From NCBI GenBank assembly GCA_965218795.1, contig OZ244653.1, positions 3,200,001 through 3,264,000 of the forward strand: a stretch of DNA of 64,000 nt, given 5' to 3'. The position numbers and the translations under genes were made by a program. How positions within the stretch are numbered: the first letter of the stretch is position 1; each line of letters begins with the position of its first letter. The notes under the pieces are model-generated. The model made no database searches. It saw only the letters and a list, made by a program, of their open reading frames with translations, and was not told the origin of the DNA. Below, piece after piece: positions 19,964 through 25,913 of this stretch. The DNA comes from a bacterium. GTDB lineage: Bacteria > UBA8248 > JACPRG01 > G963555815.

Positions 19964-20016
19964 CTATACCCACAGCCGACACTGTAATGCGGTGCGGCTG
20001 AGTGCTGGCGTTAGCC
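19958..20016 (+). other. attC-like integron recombination site (59 bp)
   Basis: TGGTAAC-tatacccaCAGCCGACAC...GTGCGGCTGagtgctggc-GTTAGCC; imperfect inverted repeat with one unpaired base. Confidence 0.7.
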
Positions 20017-20079
20017 CTACAAAGAAATGAAAGGAAGTATTCGCTACGTTCGACCGCCTCTTCCACGGCTTACATCTGG

Positions 20080-22656
20080 CTAATAGGGTTTAGCTTCGTC
20101 CCAGACGCGGCCGATGGCCGCTGCAATCTTCCCCTCCATCCGCTCCACCAACTCGCGATTGGCGTTGACGAGGGCTTGCTCGGCTTCGATATCGGTAACG
20201 ATGGTTTGTTGGATTTCGATAGATGGGCGAGGGATTTTGGTCTGGAACAATTGCGACCGATTGATCTTTGGAATACTTGCTCGTTCGTAGTGGTACCGAA
20301 TTTGTTTATTGAACGCTTCAGACAGCATATAGGCTGCTAGATAAGTAATCTGGATTTTGGAGTGGTCCGGAAGCAGGGGATACATGTCGGAGCTACAGTA
20401 TCCCTGAAGATCGACAACCGCTAATTTGTTGAGGTATGGTCGGATCTTGCTGTAGAGAAGACGTTCGCCAACAAATTCATAAACCGGGCCGTTTACCCTT
20501 TGGGCTTGAGCCGTCTCCACTTTTAGGAGCTTTCCAGTATTTGATTCAATACTATCTGCGCCGAAGTAAGGAAGGGTGATGTCCACGTCCTTGGTGACAA
20601 TTCCGCCTAGCGAGCACAACTCCCCCAACTCGACCATCGGCCATTCAGGGTCGATGGGGATGTGGGGGCGGTAGTTGTCGATGACGGCGCGGGCGCCATC
20701 GATGACCTTCTGGTAGCCCTCGATCTCGGCGATGATTTCCTTCTGTACTTCCGGGGGTGGGAGGGGTAGTTTGATTCGCTTTAGCGAATTGCCATTAAAC
20801 TGCGGCTGACCCCCTCCGGTCACAAATGCTTTCGCTTGGTTCCAATAGGCGTCGCTTTGGGCGAAGATCCAATAGTATTGAGGATGAACCTGCTCGGGCA
20901 GAAAGCGTAGTCGGATTAGATAGGATGCAAAAACTGCAGGGCAATCCTCCTCAAAGAGCATCGTCTTGCCATAGGTGGCACCGGTTCGAGCAACGAGGAT
21001 GTCTCCTTTTTGAAGAATCGATTCGCGCGCCTCACTTGTCAAGTTAATGAACTTAGGTTCTTCATTTCGAAGCGTTCCATGTTCAGAAATGTCAGTGATC
21101 CGTATGAATCTCGCATCGCCTTCCTCGCTCGCCTTTGCGGTGAAGCCATATTCGGGTTTCGCGAGTTCCCCCAATTCCACCATCGGCCATTTTGTTCTTG
21201 TACGAATTCCATTTTCCCGATACCGCTCACCGCTCAGGTTGTATTCCCCATCCGCGGCGATCCTTTCCTTTTCCACGATGAGGGCGGCCCCTTGCTCGAT
21301 GAGGCTTCCCAACATGGATGGACAGGATGAACGGGATTCCTTCTTATCCTGAATATCCTGCGCATCCATGTTCATGTATTCCTTCACGCCCCGCGCCGTG
21401 TCCGGCAGGTCGTTCCTGTCAATCTCCCGCCGCTGCGCTCCCAGGTCGAACCCGTCGTTCTCGACCTTGAAGAAGGCGATTTTGTCCGTCTTCTTCGCGA
21501 GCGGCTTGTCGAGGATGAGGATCGAGGTCTTGACGCCGGAATACGGCTGGAACACGCCGGCGGGCAGGGAAACGACCGCAACCAGGTACTCGTCGACGAG
21601 CATCCTGCGAAGCTGCTTGTAGGCGTTCTGGCTCTGGAAGATGATCCCCTCGGGCACGATGATCCCGGCGCGGCCCGAAGGCGTCAGGTGCTCGGCCATG
21701 TAGTCCACGAACAGCACCTCGCTCCGCTTGGACTGCACCGAGAAGCGGTTGTGGGGGCGGATCCCGCCCTTGGGCGACATGAACGGGGGGTTGGCCAGGA
21801 TCACGTCGGCGTACTCGTTCCAGCGGTCCTCGCTGGTGAGGGTGTCGTACTCGAAGATGTGCGGGTCACTGAAGCCGTGCAGGTACATGTTCACCAGGGA
21901 CAGGCGCACCATGTCCGGCGAAATGTCGTAGCCCTTGAAGTTCTCCGCCAGCCGGCCCCTTTCGTCGGGGGTCAGCATGGATGTCTGGAATTCACATGGA
22001 TAGACAGGATGGACAGGATTGTCAGTGTGATTTTCATCCTGCCCGTCCCGCATATCCATGTTCGCTCTCAGGATGTGCTTGTAGGCCGAGATCAGGAACC
22101 CGGCGGTGCCGCAGGCCGGATCGAGGACGGTCTCGTCCTTCTTCGGGTCGAGGACCGCGACGATGAAGTCGATGACGTGGCGCGGGGTTCGGAACTGCCC
22201 GGCGTCGCCCTGGGAGCCGAGGACGGAGAGCAGGTACTCGAAGGCGTCGCCCAGGCGCTCGGAGTGATCGTAGGCGAACTCGTCGATGACCTTGAGGAAG
22301 GCGCGCAGGGTCTCGGGGTCGCGATAGGGCAGATAGGCGTTCTTGAAGATGTCGCGGAAGAGCGGCGGTATGCCCGGGTTCTCCGGCATCCTCGTAATGG
22401 CCTCGGCGTAGAGGTTCAGGATCTCGTGGCCGCCGAGTCCGGCGCGCATCAGCCTGGCCCATCCGTAGCGGGCGAACCCGCCGTCGAAGAAGCTGCGCCG
22501 GCCGCCGAGCTCCTCGCTCTCGGCGTCGATGTCGTCCATGAACTTGTAGATGAGGGCGATGGTGATCTGCTCGACCTGGCTCTTGGGGTCGGGCACCTTG
22601 CCCACGAGGATGTCGCGGGCGGTGTCGATGCGGCGTCTGGTGTCGGTGTCGAGCAT
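20080..22656 (-). CDS. hsdM: Type I-like RM N6-adenine methyltransferase fused to two-TRD specificity subunit (HsdM-HsdS fusion)
   Basis: GQFRTPRH, LDPACGTAGFL, ANPPF, then two TRDs each starting WPMVELGEL with IKLPLPPPEVQKEII-type helices. Confidence 0.92.
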   Translation of the reverse strand: MLDTDTRRRIDTARDILVGKVPDPKSQVEQITIALIYKFMDDIDAESEELGGRRSFFDGGFARYGWARLMRAGLGGHEILNLYAEAITRMPENPGIPPLFRDIFKNAYLPYRDPETLRAFLKVIDEFAYDHSERLGDAFEYLLSVLGSQGDAGQFRTPRHVIDFIVAVLDPKKDETVLDPACGTAGFLISAYKHILRANMDMRDGQDENHTDNPVHPVYPCEFQTSMLTPDERGRLAENFKGYDISPDMVRLSLVNMYLHGFSDPHIFEYDTLTSEDRWNEYADVILANPPFMSPKGGIRPHNRFSVQSKRSEVLFVDYMAEHLTPSGRAGIIVPEGIIFQSQNAYKQLRRMLVDEYLVAVVSLPAGVFQPYSGVKTSILILDKPLAKKTDKIAFFKVENDGFDLGAQRREIDRNDLPDTARGVKEYMNMDAQDIQDKKESRSSCPSMLGSLIEQGAALIVEKERIAADGEYNLSGERYRENGIRTRTKWPMVELGELAKPEYGFTAKASEEGDARFIRITDISEHGTLRNEEPKFINLTSEARESILQKGDILVARTGATYGKTMLFEEDCPAVFASYLIRLRFLPEQVHPQYYWIFAQSDAYWNQAKAFVTGGGQPQFNGNSLKRIKLPLPPPEVQKEIIAEIEGYQKVIDGARAVIDNYRPHIPIDPEWPMVELGELCSLGGIVTKDVDITLPYFGADSIESNTGKLLKVETAQAQRVNGPVYEFVGERLLYSKIRPYLNKLAVVDLQGYCSSDMYPLLPDHSKIQITYLAAYMLSEAFNKQIRYHYERASIPKINRSQLFQTKIPRPSIEIQQTIVTDIEAEQALVNANRELVERMEGKIAAAIGRVWDEAKPY
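21311..21372. repeat. ACAGGAT-family palindrome inserted in frame in hsdM-S (copy 1)
   Basis: aacatggatggacaggatgaacgggat-tccttctt-atcctgaatatcctgcgcatccatgtt; translated as NMDAQDIQDKKESRSSCPSML. Confidence 0.9.
21993..22062. repeat. ACAGGAT-family palindrome inserted in frame in hsdM-S (copy 2)
   Basis: cacatggatagacaggatggacaggat...atcctgcccgtcccgcatatccatgtt; translated as NMDMRDGQDENHTDNPVHPVYPC. Confidence 0.9.
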
Positions 22657-22670
22657 AAACGGATTCTTAA

Positions 22671-22700
22671 TTTACATGGATGAACAGGATGGACAGGATC
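22671..22700. repeat. Single ACAGGAT-family arm at the 3' side of the GxxExxY gene
   Basis: tttacatggatgaacaggatggacaggatc. Confidence 0.85.
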
Positions 22701-22714
22701 ATTTCTTGTTCCGT

Positions 22715-23107
22715 CTATCCGGGTTTGTTCTTACTCCGGGTGAAGCGTTTGTATTCGAGCTTGGGGTTGCCGAAATTGATGAGAAGCCCTACCTCGATGC
22801 CGGTGGCATTCAGGTAGTTGATGATCTGGGCTTGATGCTCCGAGGTGAGGGCCTTCACCGCTTTGAGCTCGACGATCACGTTGTCTTCGATAAGGAGATC
22901 AGCGTAAAAATCGCCAACCGGCTTGCCGCGAAAGCATACTGTGATGGGCTTCTGAGCCTCAACGGAAATCCCTGCACCCAACAGCGCGATAATCATGGCC
23001 TTTTCATAGACAGACTCCAAAAACCCGCTTCCCAAATCGTTGATCACCTCAAAGGCGCAGCCAATGATGGAGCGCGTCAGTTCCTGGTGCAGCCTTTCGG
23101 TATCCAT
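22715..23107 (-). CDS. GxxExxY protein (PD-(D/E)XK nuclease superfamily)
   Basis: IIGCAFEV...LGSGFLESVYEKA, FYADLLIEDNVIVELKA, HQAQIINYLNAT...GLLINFG. Confidence 0.93.
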   Translation of the reverse strand: MDTERLHQELTRSIIGCAFEVINDLGSGFLESVYEKAMIIALLGAGISVEAQKPITVCFRGKPVGDFYADLLIEDNVIVELKAVKALTSEHQAQIINYLNATGIEVGLLINFGNPKLEYKRFTRSKNKPG

Positions 23108-23111
23108 GTCC

Positions 23112-23358
23112 GGTTCCTTCATTTACATGGATGTACAGGATGGACAGGATTCTGGGATTGATCCGTGTCCTGCCTATCCTGTTGGTCCATGCTTGGTTCC
23201 TTCATTTACATGGATGTACAGGATGGACAGGATTCTGGGATTGATCCGTGTCCTGCCTATCCTGTTGGTCCATGCTTGGTTCCTAAATTTACATGGATGT
23301 ACAAGATATACAGGATAATTTCCATTTTCCTATCCTGTCCATCCTGTTCATCCATGTT
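23112..23358. repeat. Tandem array of three ACAGGAT-family palindromes (83-bp period; first two identical)
   Basis: Units start ggttcc at 23112, 23195 and 23278; each contains tttacatggatgtaca.gat..acaggat...atcctgtt...tccatg. Confidence 0.92.
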
Positions 23359-23366
23359 TGACTTCT

Positions 23367-25913
23367 CTAGGCGGCGAACCGGTTCAGGGGCACGTAATCC
23401 TTGACGTATTCGGGGATGAGGGTGCGGTACTTCTCCGGCACGGCGCGGAAGTCGCGGGTGGAAAACGCCGGGTGGGTGGCCAAGCCGGTGAACTGTCGTC
23501 TGTCGATGATGTCTCGGACATAGCCGTTGGTGACGTACGCCTTGAAGTAGGTCCTGATGGCCGGGATGGACCGGGCCTCCCGGGGCTTATGGTCGGCGAC
23601 GAACTTGGCGAATTCCTCCTCCAGCAGCTCGTCCCTGGACTTGAAGCGCGGGATGAGGCCGAAGACCTTCTCCAGGATCTCGCGCAGGGTGAGGCGGCGG
23701 TCCACCGCGGCGGCTTTCCGCAGCTTGTCGAGGGTGTAGTACTCCTCGGGTCTGTCGAAGACCTCGCGGTTCACGTAGTCGATCACGCGGTCCCACTGTC
23801 CGGCTTCGACGGCCTGCGCGACGGTCTCGTCCTTGCGCACCGCGTCCTCGAACTTCTCGAAGAACATCCGGTCGATCTTCATCCCTTCGGAGCCGACTTC
23901 CTCTTCCCGGATCGTCGAAAGGATGTCGCGTCCAAGATGCTCATAGGCGCCGCCGGTTCTGACAGACTCTTCGCCGTCCCCGTCCTGGCCGTCCTCGCCG
24001 CCGCTCAAGGCCCGGGGCCGCGGCAGCTTCAATACCTCGTCGTAGTTGAACTCGGTCTCGAAATACTCGCAGTTGCCGAAGAAATCGAAGAGCTTGAAGG
24101 CGGTCTTCTCAGGTTCTTTGACGCCATCCGCGAGCGCGGGGTCGTGTAGCTGGTCGAGGAAATCGTGCGGGCGGGTGCCGCGCCCCTTGATCTGGACGAA
24201 ATCGGTGGGCGAGAAGATGGGGCGGAACAGGCCGAGATTCAGGATGTCGGTGCAGTCGTAGCCGGTGGTCATCATGCCCACGGTCACGCAGACCCGGGCC
24301 TTGCTCGTCCGGTAGCCGTCCAGGAAGTTGGCCGCGCCGAGCAGGTTGTTGTTGGCGAAGTTGACGGTGAACTGCTGGGCGTCCGGCACGTGCGAGGTCA
24401 CCTGCACGGCGAAGTCGGATTGGTATTTGCCGGGGAACATCCGGTCGGCGATCCGGTTGAAACTCTGCGCGAGCTTGGCCGCGTGGCTCTGGCTGACGGC
24501 GAACACGATGGACTTGCCGATCTCGCCGCTGACCGGATCGCGCAGGGCGTTCTCCAGGAAGGTCTTGCAGAAGAGCTGGTTGGTGGCCTCGGAGTAGAAG
24601 CGCTTCTCGAACTCGCGCTGCTTGTAGGCCTCGCCGTGATCCTCTCCCTCGGTATCGGTGAACGAGACGACGAACCCCTCCTCGGAGAGGAGCTGCGTGG
24701 TCACTTCCGTGCGGGCGTCCACCACGGTCGGGTTGATCAGGTATCCGTCATTCACGCCGTCGAGCAGCGAATATCGGAAGGTGGGGTGCCCGCTCTCGCA
24801 GCCGAAGGTGCGGTAGGTGTCGAGGAGGAGGCGCCGTTCGGCTTCGCGCGGGTCATGCGCCGCGGCGCCGTTCTTTCCGGCGCCCTTCAAATAGTCGCGG
24901 GGCGTGGCCGTCAGGCCGAGCTTGCAGCCCACGAAAAAGTCGAACACCGCGCGGGCGTTGCCGCCGATGGAGCGGTGCGCCTCGTCGGAGATTACGAGAT
25001 CGAAATCGGTGGGCGAGAAAAGCCGCCGGTATTTGTTGTCGAACAGGAGCGATTGCACGGTGGTGACGACGATCTCGGCGCGCCGCCACTCGTCCCGGTT
25101 CTCCTTGTAGACGACCGTCTGAAAGTCCGCCGAGAGCAACGCGGTGAAGACCTTCCGGGCCTGTTCCTCCAGTTCCAGCCGATCCACCAGGAAGAGGGCG
25201 CGGCGGGCGTTGCCGGAACGAAGGAACAGCTTGATGACGGCGGCGGCGGTGAGGGTCTTGCCGGTGCCGGTGGCCATTTCGAAGAGAAAGCGGTCGCCGC
25301 CGTCTTTCACCGCCTGCTGGAGGGCATGGATCGCTTTGAGCTGATAGGGGCGCAGAAAGCGCAGTTTGTTGGCCTGGATGAAGCCGGATCGCTCGGCTTC
25401 GTTCTTCCACGCGGCTTCGGAGGCGTAGTTCGGCCGCTGCGTGAGGACGATGTAGTCGTCTCGGACCCGTTCATCGATCAGGCGCCGCGGGTCGGGCGAG
25501 ACCTTCTGGTAGCCGGATACCGAATCCGGCGTCGGGAACGAGGTGATGACGTAGGGATTGCCGCGCTCCAGATCCCAGAAGTAATGCAGGTTGCCGTTCG
25601 ACAGGATGACGAAGCGGCAATTCTGCGAGCGGGCGTATTTGCGGGCCTGCTCCTTGCCGGCGAGGGGGTTCCTGTCCTCGGACTTGGCCTCCAGGACGAT
25701 CAGGGGAAACCCCTTGGCGTCGAGGAGCAGGAAGTCGATGAAACCTTTGGAGGTATTCTCGAAGTCGTCGCCCAGGGGGTCGAGGTCGGATGCCTCGATC
25801 GTGACGCCTGTCTCAAGGCAGATGTTGGCGGGCTCTCCCCCTTCGGCGAAGAAGCGCCAGCCGGCCGCTTCGAGCAGCCTGTTGATCTTGATGCGGGAAG
25901 CGGCTTCGTTCAT
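23367..25913 (-). CDS. hsdR: Type I restriction endonuclease subunit R (EcoAI-like)
   Basis: IDFLL...VLEAK nuclease motif, MATGTGKT, DEAHRS, GLTATP, QIKGRGTR. Confidence 0.92.
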   Translation of the reverse strand: MNEAASRIKINRLLEAAGWRFFAEGGEPANICLETGVTIEASDLDPLGDDFENTSKGFIDFLLLDAKGFPLIVLEAKSEDRNPLAGKEQARKYARSQNCRFVILSNGNLHYFWDLERGNPYVITSFPTPDSVSGYQKVSPDPRRLIDERVRDDYIVLTQRPNYASEAAWKNEAERSGFIQANKLRFLRPYQLKAIHALQQAVKDGGDRFLFEMATGTGKTLTAAAVIKLFLRSGNARRALFLVDRLELEEQARKVFTALLSADFQTVVYKENRDEWRRAEIVVTTVQSLLFDNKYRRLFSPTDFDLVISDEAHRSIGGNARAVFDFFVGCKLGLTATPRDYLKGAGKNGAAAHDPREAERRLLLDTYRTFGCESGHPTFRYSLLDGVNDGYLINPTVVDARTEVTTQLLSEEGFVVSFTDTEGEDHGEAYKQREFEKRFYSEATNQLFCKTFLENALRDPVSGEIGKSIVFAVSQSHAAKLAQSFNRIADRMFPGKYQSDFAVQVTSHVPDAQQFTVNFANNNLLGAANFLDGYRTSKARVCVTVGMMTTGYDCTDILNLGLFRPIFSPTDFVQIKGRGTRPHDFLDQLHDPALADGVKEPEKTAFKLFDFFGNCEYFETEFNYDEVLKLPRPRALSGGEDGQDGDGEESVRTGGAYEHLGRDILSTIREEEVGSEGMKIDRMFFEKFEDAVRKDETVAQAVEAGQWDRVIDYVNREVFDRPEEYYTLDKLRKAAAVDRRLTLREILEKVFGLIPRFKSRDELLEEEFAKFVADHKPREARSIPAIRTYFKAYVTNGYVRDIIDRRQFTGLATHPAFSTRDFRAVPEKYRTLIPEYVKDYVPLNRFAA

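Follow-up and report, generated by a model that had tools for sequence, protein, structure and literature searches.

The 64-kb window analysed here, which is the whole stretch of contig OZ244653.1 under consideration, carries three genes on the minus strand between positions 20080 and 25913: an hsdR-like gene (23367..25913) for a restriction subunit of 848 amino acids (aa), a small GxxExxY (PDDEXK_3) nuclease gene (22715..23122) and an intact fused hsdM-hsdS gene (20080..22656; 858 aa). The functions of a type I restriction-modification (RM) system are complete by profile, with ResIII (Pfam, 3.7e-36) and HSDR_N for R, N6_Mtase (1.1e-47) for M and Methylase_S (2.9e-21) for S; the NCBIfam equivalogs for RM genes, including the EcoAI-type R subunit, all scored under their cut-offs, and the subtype is unassigned. 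The nuclease gene is contained in a stretch of about 0.7 kb (22674-23357), placed between hsdR, which lies directly upstream, and hsdM-S, and bounded by inverted copies of one short repeat, which we call arms. This stretch is the subject of the present work. We give a probability of about 0.6 to the reading that it is a palindrome-bounded GxxExxY cassette, a small selfish unit that moves horizontally, and that the palindromes found dispersed in genomes are its derivatives.

Anatomy of the cassette and its empty site

The arm, CATGGATGnACAGGATGnACAGGAT, is built of three units of 9 nucleotides (nt) of the form ACAGGATGn, the outermost of which reads CATGGATGn, and this periodicity is present in all arms. 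A search of the window with the pattern CATGGATGNACAGGATGNACAGGAT, allowing up to 3 mismatches, returned eight matches, all within 21313-23356, and none of 100 shuffled controls contained any match. They correspond to five full palindromes plus an arm standing on its own at 22674-22699. Palindromes A (21311..21372) and B (21994..22061) lie within hsdM-S, whose 858-aa open reading frame (ORF) reads through both of them in frame; C1 (23125..23191), C2 (23208..23274) and C3 (23291..23357) belong to a tandem array. An earlier inspection of the letters alone, which we refer to as the first-pass annotation, had described this repeat family, its coordinates and its motif, two full copies inside hsdM-S and an array of three copies, and all of this proved correct, with no further arm in the 64 kb. 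By DNA folding, all four hairpins tested exceed the stability of shuffled sequences (z from -3.5 to -6.4, the latter for C3). An Rfam scan of 20000-24500 with E values up to 1 gave a sole sub-threshold match to mir-140, which we take as chance.

Read on the sense (minus) strand, the hsdR stop codon is followed by the array of 83-nt units (23351 to 23103), by GAAGGA and by the ATG GAT of the nuclease ORF; after the ORF come its stop codon, residing in a degenerate arm unit (CCCGGATAG), then a perfect arm from 22699 to 22674, 17 nt, and the start of hsdM-S. The degenerate internal arm that carries the stop codon occupies 22700..22723, with CCCGGATAGACGGAACAAG on the sense strand. The 3' terminal arm (22674..22699) is a perfect match to the pattern and ends 17 nt before the hsdM-S start codon, and the outer arm of C3 (23332-23357) constitutes the 5' terminal arm. 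The two are an inverted pair complementary at 26 of 26 positions, which bears out the earlier proposal that the gene is enclosed by two inverted arms. In the minimum-free-energy fold predicted for the transcript the outer arms pair as a 26-bp stem, with z of -7.2 against 20 shuffles.

The array (23103..23351) came out of the repeat search as three units with a spacing of 83 nt and with 100%, 96% and 60% identity (23103-23185, 23186-23268 and 23269-23351), the first two being 96% identical to one another. Each unit consists of a spacer that resembles the Shine-Dalgarno and start region of the gene, followed by one palindrome. Because every 83-nt unit thus repeats a copy of the gene's start region, we infer that the array arose through tandem duplication and not through separate insertions. 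Contigs of three studies skip one 83-nt unit (from 23111 to 23195), and as an assembly collapse of near-identical repeats would look alike, this is not taken for polymorphism. Arrays of two to five tandem palindromes stand beside cassettes elsewhere as well (L183, L194, L214, L217, L045-L047 and G062:C1:1194442-1195138); the repeated unit of L217 takes in the first hsdM codons, and that of the window the nuclease start region.

The same junction was compared in related hsdR-hsdM-S loci. In six of six such loci, namely the paralogue in the same genome and those of G053, G021, G017, G005 and G018, the hsdR stop codon is followed by a 13-nt spacer similar to AGAGAGGAACCCC and then by the ATG, with neither a GxxExxY gene nor arms. 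As six related loci have the 13-nt spacer in place of the 0.7-kb stretch, sequence comparison identifies the stretch as an inserted cassette; the comparison with orthologous loci that had been proposed therefore defines an empty site, and the arm-gene-arm arrangement appears there as a discrete inserted unit. A/T-rich flanks frequently prolong the palindrome.

Two observations concern the occupied spacer itself. A seventh related locus, G039 (L144, 2137-3238), has a different insert of 1.1 kb in the same hsdR-hsdM spacer, with small ORFs, one of them with weak aspartyl-protease-like Pfam matches, and without a GxxExxY gene or ACAGGAT arms; the spacer seems to be a hot spot for insertion. In the window, insertion of the cassette has displaced the native ribosome-binding spacer (AGAGAGGAACCCC) in front of hsdM-S, and the 17 nt now preceding the ATG (22657-22673, AAATTAAGAATCCGTTT) contain no clear Shine-Dalgarno motif, for which reason the translation of hsdM-S may be altered.

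The nuclease and its relatives

Counted from the ATG at 23122, the nuclease ORF has 135 aa. PF13366 is the sole Pfam family in the protein (6.9e-42, 142.9 bits against a cut-off of 22), and TIGR04256 reaches 144.7 bits, the cut-off being 35. The GxxExxY motif is represented by G33-F-L-E36-S-V-Y39, and D75, E85 and K87 form the D...ExK core of PD-(D/E)XK nucleases; across 33 sequences no variation is seen at G33, Y39, D75 and K87, and conservation of E36 and E85 is 90% or higher. For the AlphaFold2 model (pLDDT 90.8) Foldseek gave as nearest folds Cas4 SSO0001 (4ic1, E 6e-5), lambda exonuclease, 3ijm, which is a restriction-endonuclease-like protein, and the junction resolvase Hjc, with TM scores of about 0.4-0.55, which places the protein in the restriction-endonuclease-like fold. 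No relative was returned by a PDB sequence search with the nuclease. In the 2012 survey of PD-(D/E)XK proteins the function of PF13366 is given as 'Unknown' (PMC3424549), and the mention of GxxExxY in PMC8934634 is an annotation remark.

A metagenome scan yielded 321 relatives of the gene, and the best 80 of them, with proteins 63-75% identical to that of the window, were kept. Inverted repeats of the ACAGGAT type (score of at least 24) flank the gene in 64 of these 80, compared with 2 of 250 control positions shifted by 1-2 kb, so the arm-gene-arm design foreseen for other GxxExxY loci is indeed found there. Only three of the 80 relatives have an internal stop, and we therefore conclude that the gene is generally kept intact. 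Both ends of the gene are frequently made of arm sequence. The stop codon lies within CATGGATAG/A of the forward arm in 11 of 21 RM-resident relatives and directly after CAGGAT in five more. As for the other end, the first-pass annotation took a partial arm to supply the start of the gene. This holds in the window for a remnant, ATCCATGT (23103-23110), and a complete arm is seen in the relatives, where 33 of the 64 arm-flanked loci have a 5' (left) arm that extends over the start of the ORF, supplying ATG GAT and encoding MDxQDxQD. Since the arm of the relatives encodes this peptide, the true start of the window gene is likely the ATG GAT at 23107, after GAAGGA.

Flanking inverted repeats are not restricted to the ACAGGAT type; they accompany 10 of 13 PF13366 genes from six genomes. 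Proteins with ACAGGAT arms from Acidobacteriota, Chloroflexota and Latescibacterota are 64-79% identical to the window protein (65-79% for the four among the 13 genes), compared with 37-44% for proteins whose genes have GGCACAAAA, CACGAAGG, ACACGAAT, ACGAAAG or CACAGAT arms; the one gene at which no arms were found (L135) encodes a protein 49% identical. According to this comparison arm type tracks protein lineage, and the co-variation of repeat and protein phylogeny that had been anticipated is seen. The window's own genome has a second PF13366 gene (L140, G000:C1:73077-73613) with its own inverted arms of 9-nt units, ATCCACAGATTACACAGATAACGCAGA and its inverse (inverted-repeat score 39). The Pfam match of this gene ends at profile position 98 of 117, and the gene may be truncated. 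Isolated arms of the ATCCACAGATTACACAGATAACGCAGA type are located at 122607, 784805, 1581955 and 2399342.

In a survey of neighbours, 103 of the 109 long ORFs flanking the 80 relatives were scanned, six ORFs from three near-duplicate loci being dropped. In 21 of 47 loci the downstream ORF is a same-strand N6_Mtase and the relative occupies the hsdR-hsdM site with a homologous junction; eight upstream ORFs show the end of ResIII. The junction, composed of ATCCATGT, 13-17 nt and ATG, recurs in most of the 19 relatives listed. By a crude longest-ORF call, the long ORF upstream is co-directional with the gene in 29 of 31 loci, and this co-orientation, together with the predicted stem enclosing the ORF, suggests that the gene depends on host transcription.

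Identity of the HsdM N-terminus to that of the window is 80-91% in cassette-bearing and 84-91% in cassette-free loci. In a maximum-likelihood tree of HsdM the window groups with the seven loci of its own phylum that lack the cassette (support 95/94), and the cassette label needs two changes on the tree; the starred branches are compatible with one origin, and the cassette-bearing and cassette-free loci came from different searches, which biases the sampling. Within the window's phylum a full-length close relative of the gene was found in only one of 51 genomes, the window's own (G000), and arms in 2 of 41. From this scarcity, the tree and the occupation of the same site in relatives we conclude, on sequence grounds, that the cassette came by horizontal transfer, into a site that many related RM operons elsewhere also have filled. 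Members of the same cassette clade are also found in flagellar, AMP-ligase and V-ATPase loci.

Free-standing homing endonuclease genes of phages, in what is called intronless homing, similarly sit in spacers between conserved genes and are present or absent among homologous loci. To our knowledge they are not enclosed by palindromes and leave no dispersed gene-less derivatives. A nuclease of this kind would cut the empty intergenic site, and recombination via the conserved flanks would copy the cassette between homologous operons; the arms would be mainly an RNA stem, removed or tolerated as in the intervening sequences (IVS) of 23S rRNA, and the dispersed palindromes a separate by-product. 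We consider it an unlikely explanation, albeit the main rival, and homing-type spread between RM operons may take place alongside the movement of a selfish unit. It agrees with the filling of one site through a homologous junction in the 21 loci, with highly conserved flanks (hsdM-S begins MLDTDTKRRIDTARDILVGKVPDPK in nearly all loci), with the position of the window among cassette-free HsdM sequences and the two label changes, with co-orientation and with the predicted 26-bp stem, and IVS elements are themselves stem-bounded ORFs that are cut by RNase III (PMC4990558). It leaves unexplained, however, the presence of the same clade in the three other kinds of loci as well as hundreds of gene-less palindromes that are bounded exactly by arms at non-homologous sites, and its support from the tree is subject to the biased sampling and to a possible single origin.

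Palindromes without the gene

On the 5.17-Mb chromosome that includes the window, a search allowing up to 4 mismatches revealed 12 arms. Eight of them are at the locus described here, and the repeat is not unique to it: one arm is at 797394, in the paralogous RM locus, and three (3416222, 4612623 and 4612688) are in two paralogous Mu-like prophage regions. The prophage palindromes (G000:C1:3416160-3416255 and 4612595-4612725, L232) are of the ACAGGAT type, have an unassigned ORF on one side and a Mu F-like gene on the other, lie downstream of a Mu portal gene and differ between the two copies in the number of 9-nt units. Because ACAGGAT palindromes occur in such regions, phages may be carriers of palindromes between hosts.

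In other phyla the gene-less copies are abundant. A scan of a species-representative genome collection with the 22-nt arm pattern GGATRNACAGGATRNACAGGAT gave at least 127 loci, about 4 being expected by our own arithmetic with uniform composition, and these are distributed over Acidobacteriota, Chloroflexota, Latescibacterota, Verrucomicrobiota, Planctomycetota, Gemmatimonadota, Nitrospirae, Proteobacteria and others; most of the listed loci are full palindromes with variable loops. Fifteen arm-rich genomes, picked for carrying the arm, have 20-427 arms each, compared with 0-1 matches of the reversed pattern. Eleven of these 15 genomes have a cognate gene (identity of 64% or more), two of the copies being doubtful (one split, one stop-flagged), so that many repeats go with one or few genes in 9-11 of the 15. 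In G041, for example, there are 208 arms and only one PF13366 gene, which is enclosed by the arms at 233695-233716(+) and 234119-234140(-). One loop, in one or the other orientation, is common to three G041 copies, whose flanks have no similarity outside the arms.

The suggestion that gene-less copies derive from the cassette stands in part. Copies in G044 and related genomes retain 55-90 nt of the cassette's 5' interior. In G042, 11 of 11 examined places had a derivative of a GGCACAAAA-type cassette that deletion had reduced to 195 nt, 94-100% identical and with the 3' end of the gene retained; as a candidate for an amplified miniature inverted-repeat transposable element (MITE) it is weakened by a flank of at least 110 nt common to most copies on both sides, and since a larger repeat includes it, the arms cannot be held responsible for its spread. 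This larger multi-copy repeat (L234, L237-L246) has an outer inverted repeat of its own, similar to GAGCCTTTTGCAAAATTCGGCAG, and CACGAAGG and ACAGGAT arms directly adjoin the derivative, different arm types being nested or clustered in G042.

Palindromes A and B were compared among the 120 best hsdM-S homologues (74-94% identical), which are mostly fused, with the majority of listed lengths at about 820-880 aa. Palindrome A is read in frame as aa 429-449 (MNMDAQDIQDKKESRSSCPSML) and forms the linker between the M and S domains; 87 of the 120 homologues have a palindrome-coded segment, NMDxQDxQDK...SCPSCxSML, at this site, and the other 33 have the native linker RRLRAGESVxDFQPTLG, a linker seen in G021, G039, G017 and G018. 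Palindrome B, read in frame at about aa 199-221 (NMDMRDGQDENHTDNPVHPVYPC), lies in a variable loop after the AdoMet motif. Site B is filled, by palindrome B or another insert, in 33 of the 120 and empty in 87 (AN-TDAxGH-STLTPDE), and the paralogue, G053, G005, G039 and G018 have it empty; several different inserts occur there among the homologues, and in one of them two inserts in tandem. The paralogous hsdR-hsdM-S locus of the same genome (L148, G000:C1:795930-800144), with an M domain about 89% identical and different specificity domains, lacks the cassette, has site B empty and has a palindrome A one 9-nt unit shorter. The first-pass annotation considered that the nuclease generates local insertions in the defence locus, and these counts contradict it: being shared with homologues, and A also with the paralogue, the two palindromes are by this comparison old inserts inherited with the RM gene and not made by the neighbouring nuclease. 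Intact database proteins can reveal in-frame inserts only, and the in-frame rule is thus partly a matter of ascertainment. Empty site B (e.g. in L148 and L142) reads AACACGGATGAAAAC, which looks like one arm unit (AACATGGATG / ACAGGATGAAAA) and hints that the palindromes may target arm-like sequence.

Proposed movement, rival explanations and significance

Taken as a selfish, horizontally moving unit, the cassette would have entered the 13-nt spacer between hsdR and hsdM-S, where it would be transcribed with the operon, and a short tandem duplication would later have lengthened it on the 5' side. Gene-less palindromes with the same arms would be non-autonomous or decayed derivatives. Some of them would persist inside genes as translated inserts, which is conceivable because stop codons are scarce in the arms and the length of a unit is divisible by three; the copies in hsdM-S would be old ones that came with the RM gene. 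As to the manner of movement, the nuclease would be expected to recognise the repeated units in the arms of its own cassette, in duplex, hairpin or cruciform form, to cut there and to promote copying or movement. In the transcript, the stem formed by the arms may shield the host operon in the way of an IVS.

Several results weigh against such a unit. A comparison of filled and empty states for the cassette, sites A and B and the G041 copies gave no consistent target-site duplication. The occupancy of the hsdR-hsdM site in 21 of 47 loci suits hitch-hiking with the RM operon equally as well as active movement, and a few near-duplicate metagenome loci remain in our counts. With the query used, no cognate gene was found in G042 (186 arms), G059 (27), G061 (95) or G065 (230), which are four of the 15 arm-rich genomes. 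Among the 127 listed arm loci, 47 of which have a flank of only about 300 nt, a GxxExxY gene was met in only three regions, with one weak match in addition, and clustering of their 2024 ORFs revealed no gene family that recurs beside the palindromes. The enrichment of the repeat near GxxExxY genes, as envisaged in the first-pass annotation, is therefore not general. The spread of the G042 derivative with its larger repeat belongs to the same side of the balance.

The absence of a cognate gene from four arm-rich genomes, of a GxxExxY gene from the vicinity of most arm loci and of a recurring neighbour from the arm loci would suit another explanation, in which the palindromes are host-type elements similar to repetitive extragenic palindromic (REP) sequences, that is binding sites, terminators or messenger RNA stabilisers, multiplied by other means, and GxxExxY genes, with some other role for the nuclease, land in or beside them. 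We hold this to be improbable: a 22-nt sequence common to several phyla is unlike host-specific sites, arm type follows nuclease lineage, the start and stop codons of the gene are made of arm units, and in G041 the only GxxExxY gene is placed exactly between arms. That the protein is an accessory of the RM operon, for instance an auxiliary nuclease kept for defence with arms of regulatory function, agrees with the intact gene conserved at one operon position in 21 of 47 loci and with the intact hsdR and hsdM-S of the window, but is the least probable explanation, given six related operons without the gene, a PADLOC search with no match to the nuclease, members of the same clade in non-defence contexts, other GxxExxY lineages in unrelated loci with arms of their own and the different insert of G039 in the same spacer.

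A selfish cassette with gene-less derivatives can be set beside several known systems. With the REP-RAYT (REP-associated tyrosine transposase) and REPIN systems it shares a low-copy enzyme gene flanked by an inverted palindromic repeat, the dispersal of the same repeat without the gene and the matching of repeat type to enzyme lineage (PMC3116915, PMC3337134, PMC3733652). Unlike in these systems, its enzyme is a PD-(D/E)XK nuclease of about 130 aa and not an HUH/Y1 transposase (the HUH tyrosine type of IS200/IS605), its arms, of 26-27 nt, comprise three units of 9 nt each where REPs are tagged by GTAG/CGTC, and its copies also lie inside genes; the family crosses phyla horizontally, whereas REPIN-RAYT is described as mostly vertical (PMC3116915, PMC3337134, PMC3733652). 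The 23S rRNA IVS of Coxiella (PMC4990558) is similar in a size of about 0.4-0.7 kb, in a small ORF within terminal inverted repeats, in a long transcript stem and in a sporadic, horizontal distribution. In contrast to it, the cassette occupies the spacer of a messenger RNA operon (hsdR-hsdM) and not an rRNA helix, its ORF encodes a PF13366 nuclease and not the S23p four-helix-bundle protein, and its stem is predicted only; PMC4990558 reports no dispersed gene-less copies.

A MITE with an autonomous partner, like the elements described here, has terminal inverted repeats, a variable core, either orientation and, in some copies, retained fragments of the longer element, and Rickettsia palindromic elements resemble palindromes A and B in having copies in frame within ORFs which add peptide (PMC10969869). 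Terminal inverted repeats bound the G041 unit in the same way, but the arms here are internally periodic, the partner is without a known transposase family and, as said, no target-site duplication was found.

Our literature search, with most subscription journals outside it, found no description of a link between GxxExxY genes and repeats. New from this window are palindrome copies that are translated as part of a methylase, an hsdR-hsdM site that is occupied repeatedly, and an arm type conserved across phyla. A wider proposition, which we regard as doubtful at present but worth stating, is that GxxExxY proteins mobilise palindromic mini-elements with iteron arms, which together would form a very large superfamily spanning phyla. 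If it is true, a minimal PD-(D/E)XK nuclease acting on hairpin or cruciform DNA of the arms would represent a new kind of DNA transposase or homing enzyme, and its derivatives would seed intergenic regions and, in frame, coding genes such as RM methylases.

Connecting the large TIGR04256/PF13366 family with cognate repeats offers a function for it that can be tested, and the few systems in which a bacterial repeat family is paired with a dedicated protein would gain a second class of enzyme. In some soil and sediment genomes the arms amount to hundreds of intergenic hairpins, which matters for annotation, for assembly and for mistaken calls of RNA motifs. One RM operon family emerges as a recurrent carrier of the cassette between phyla, and the copies within its methylase, in 87 and 33 of 120 homologues, indicate that such elements can turn into lasting protein segments.

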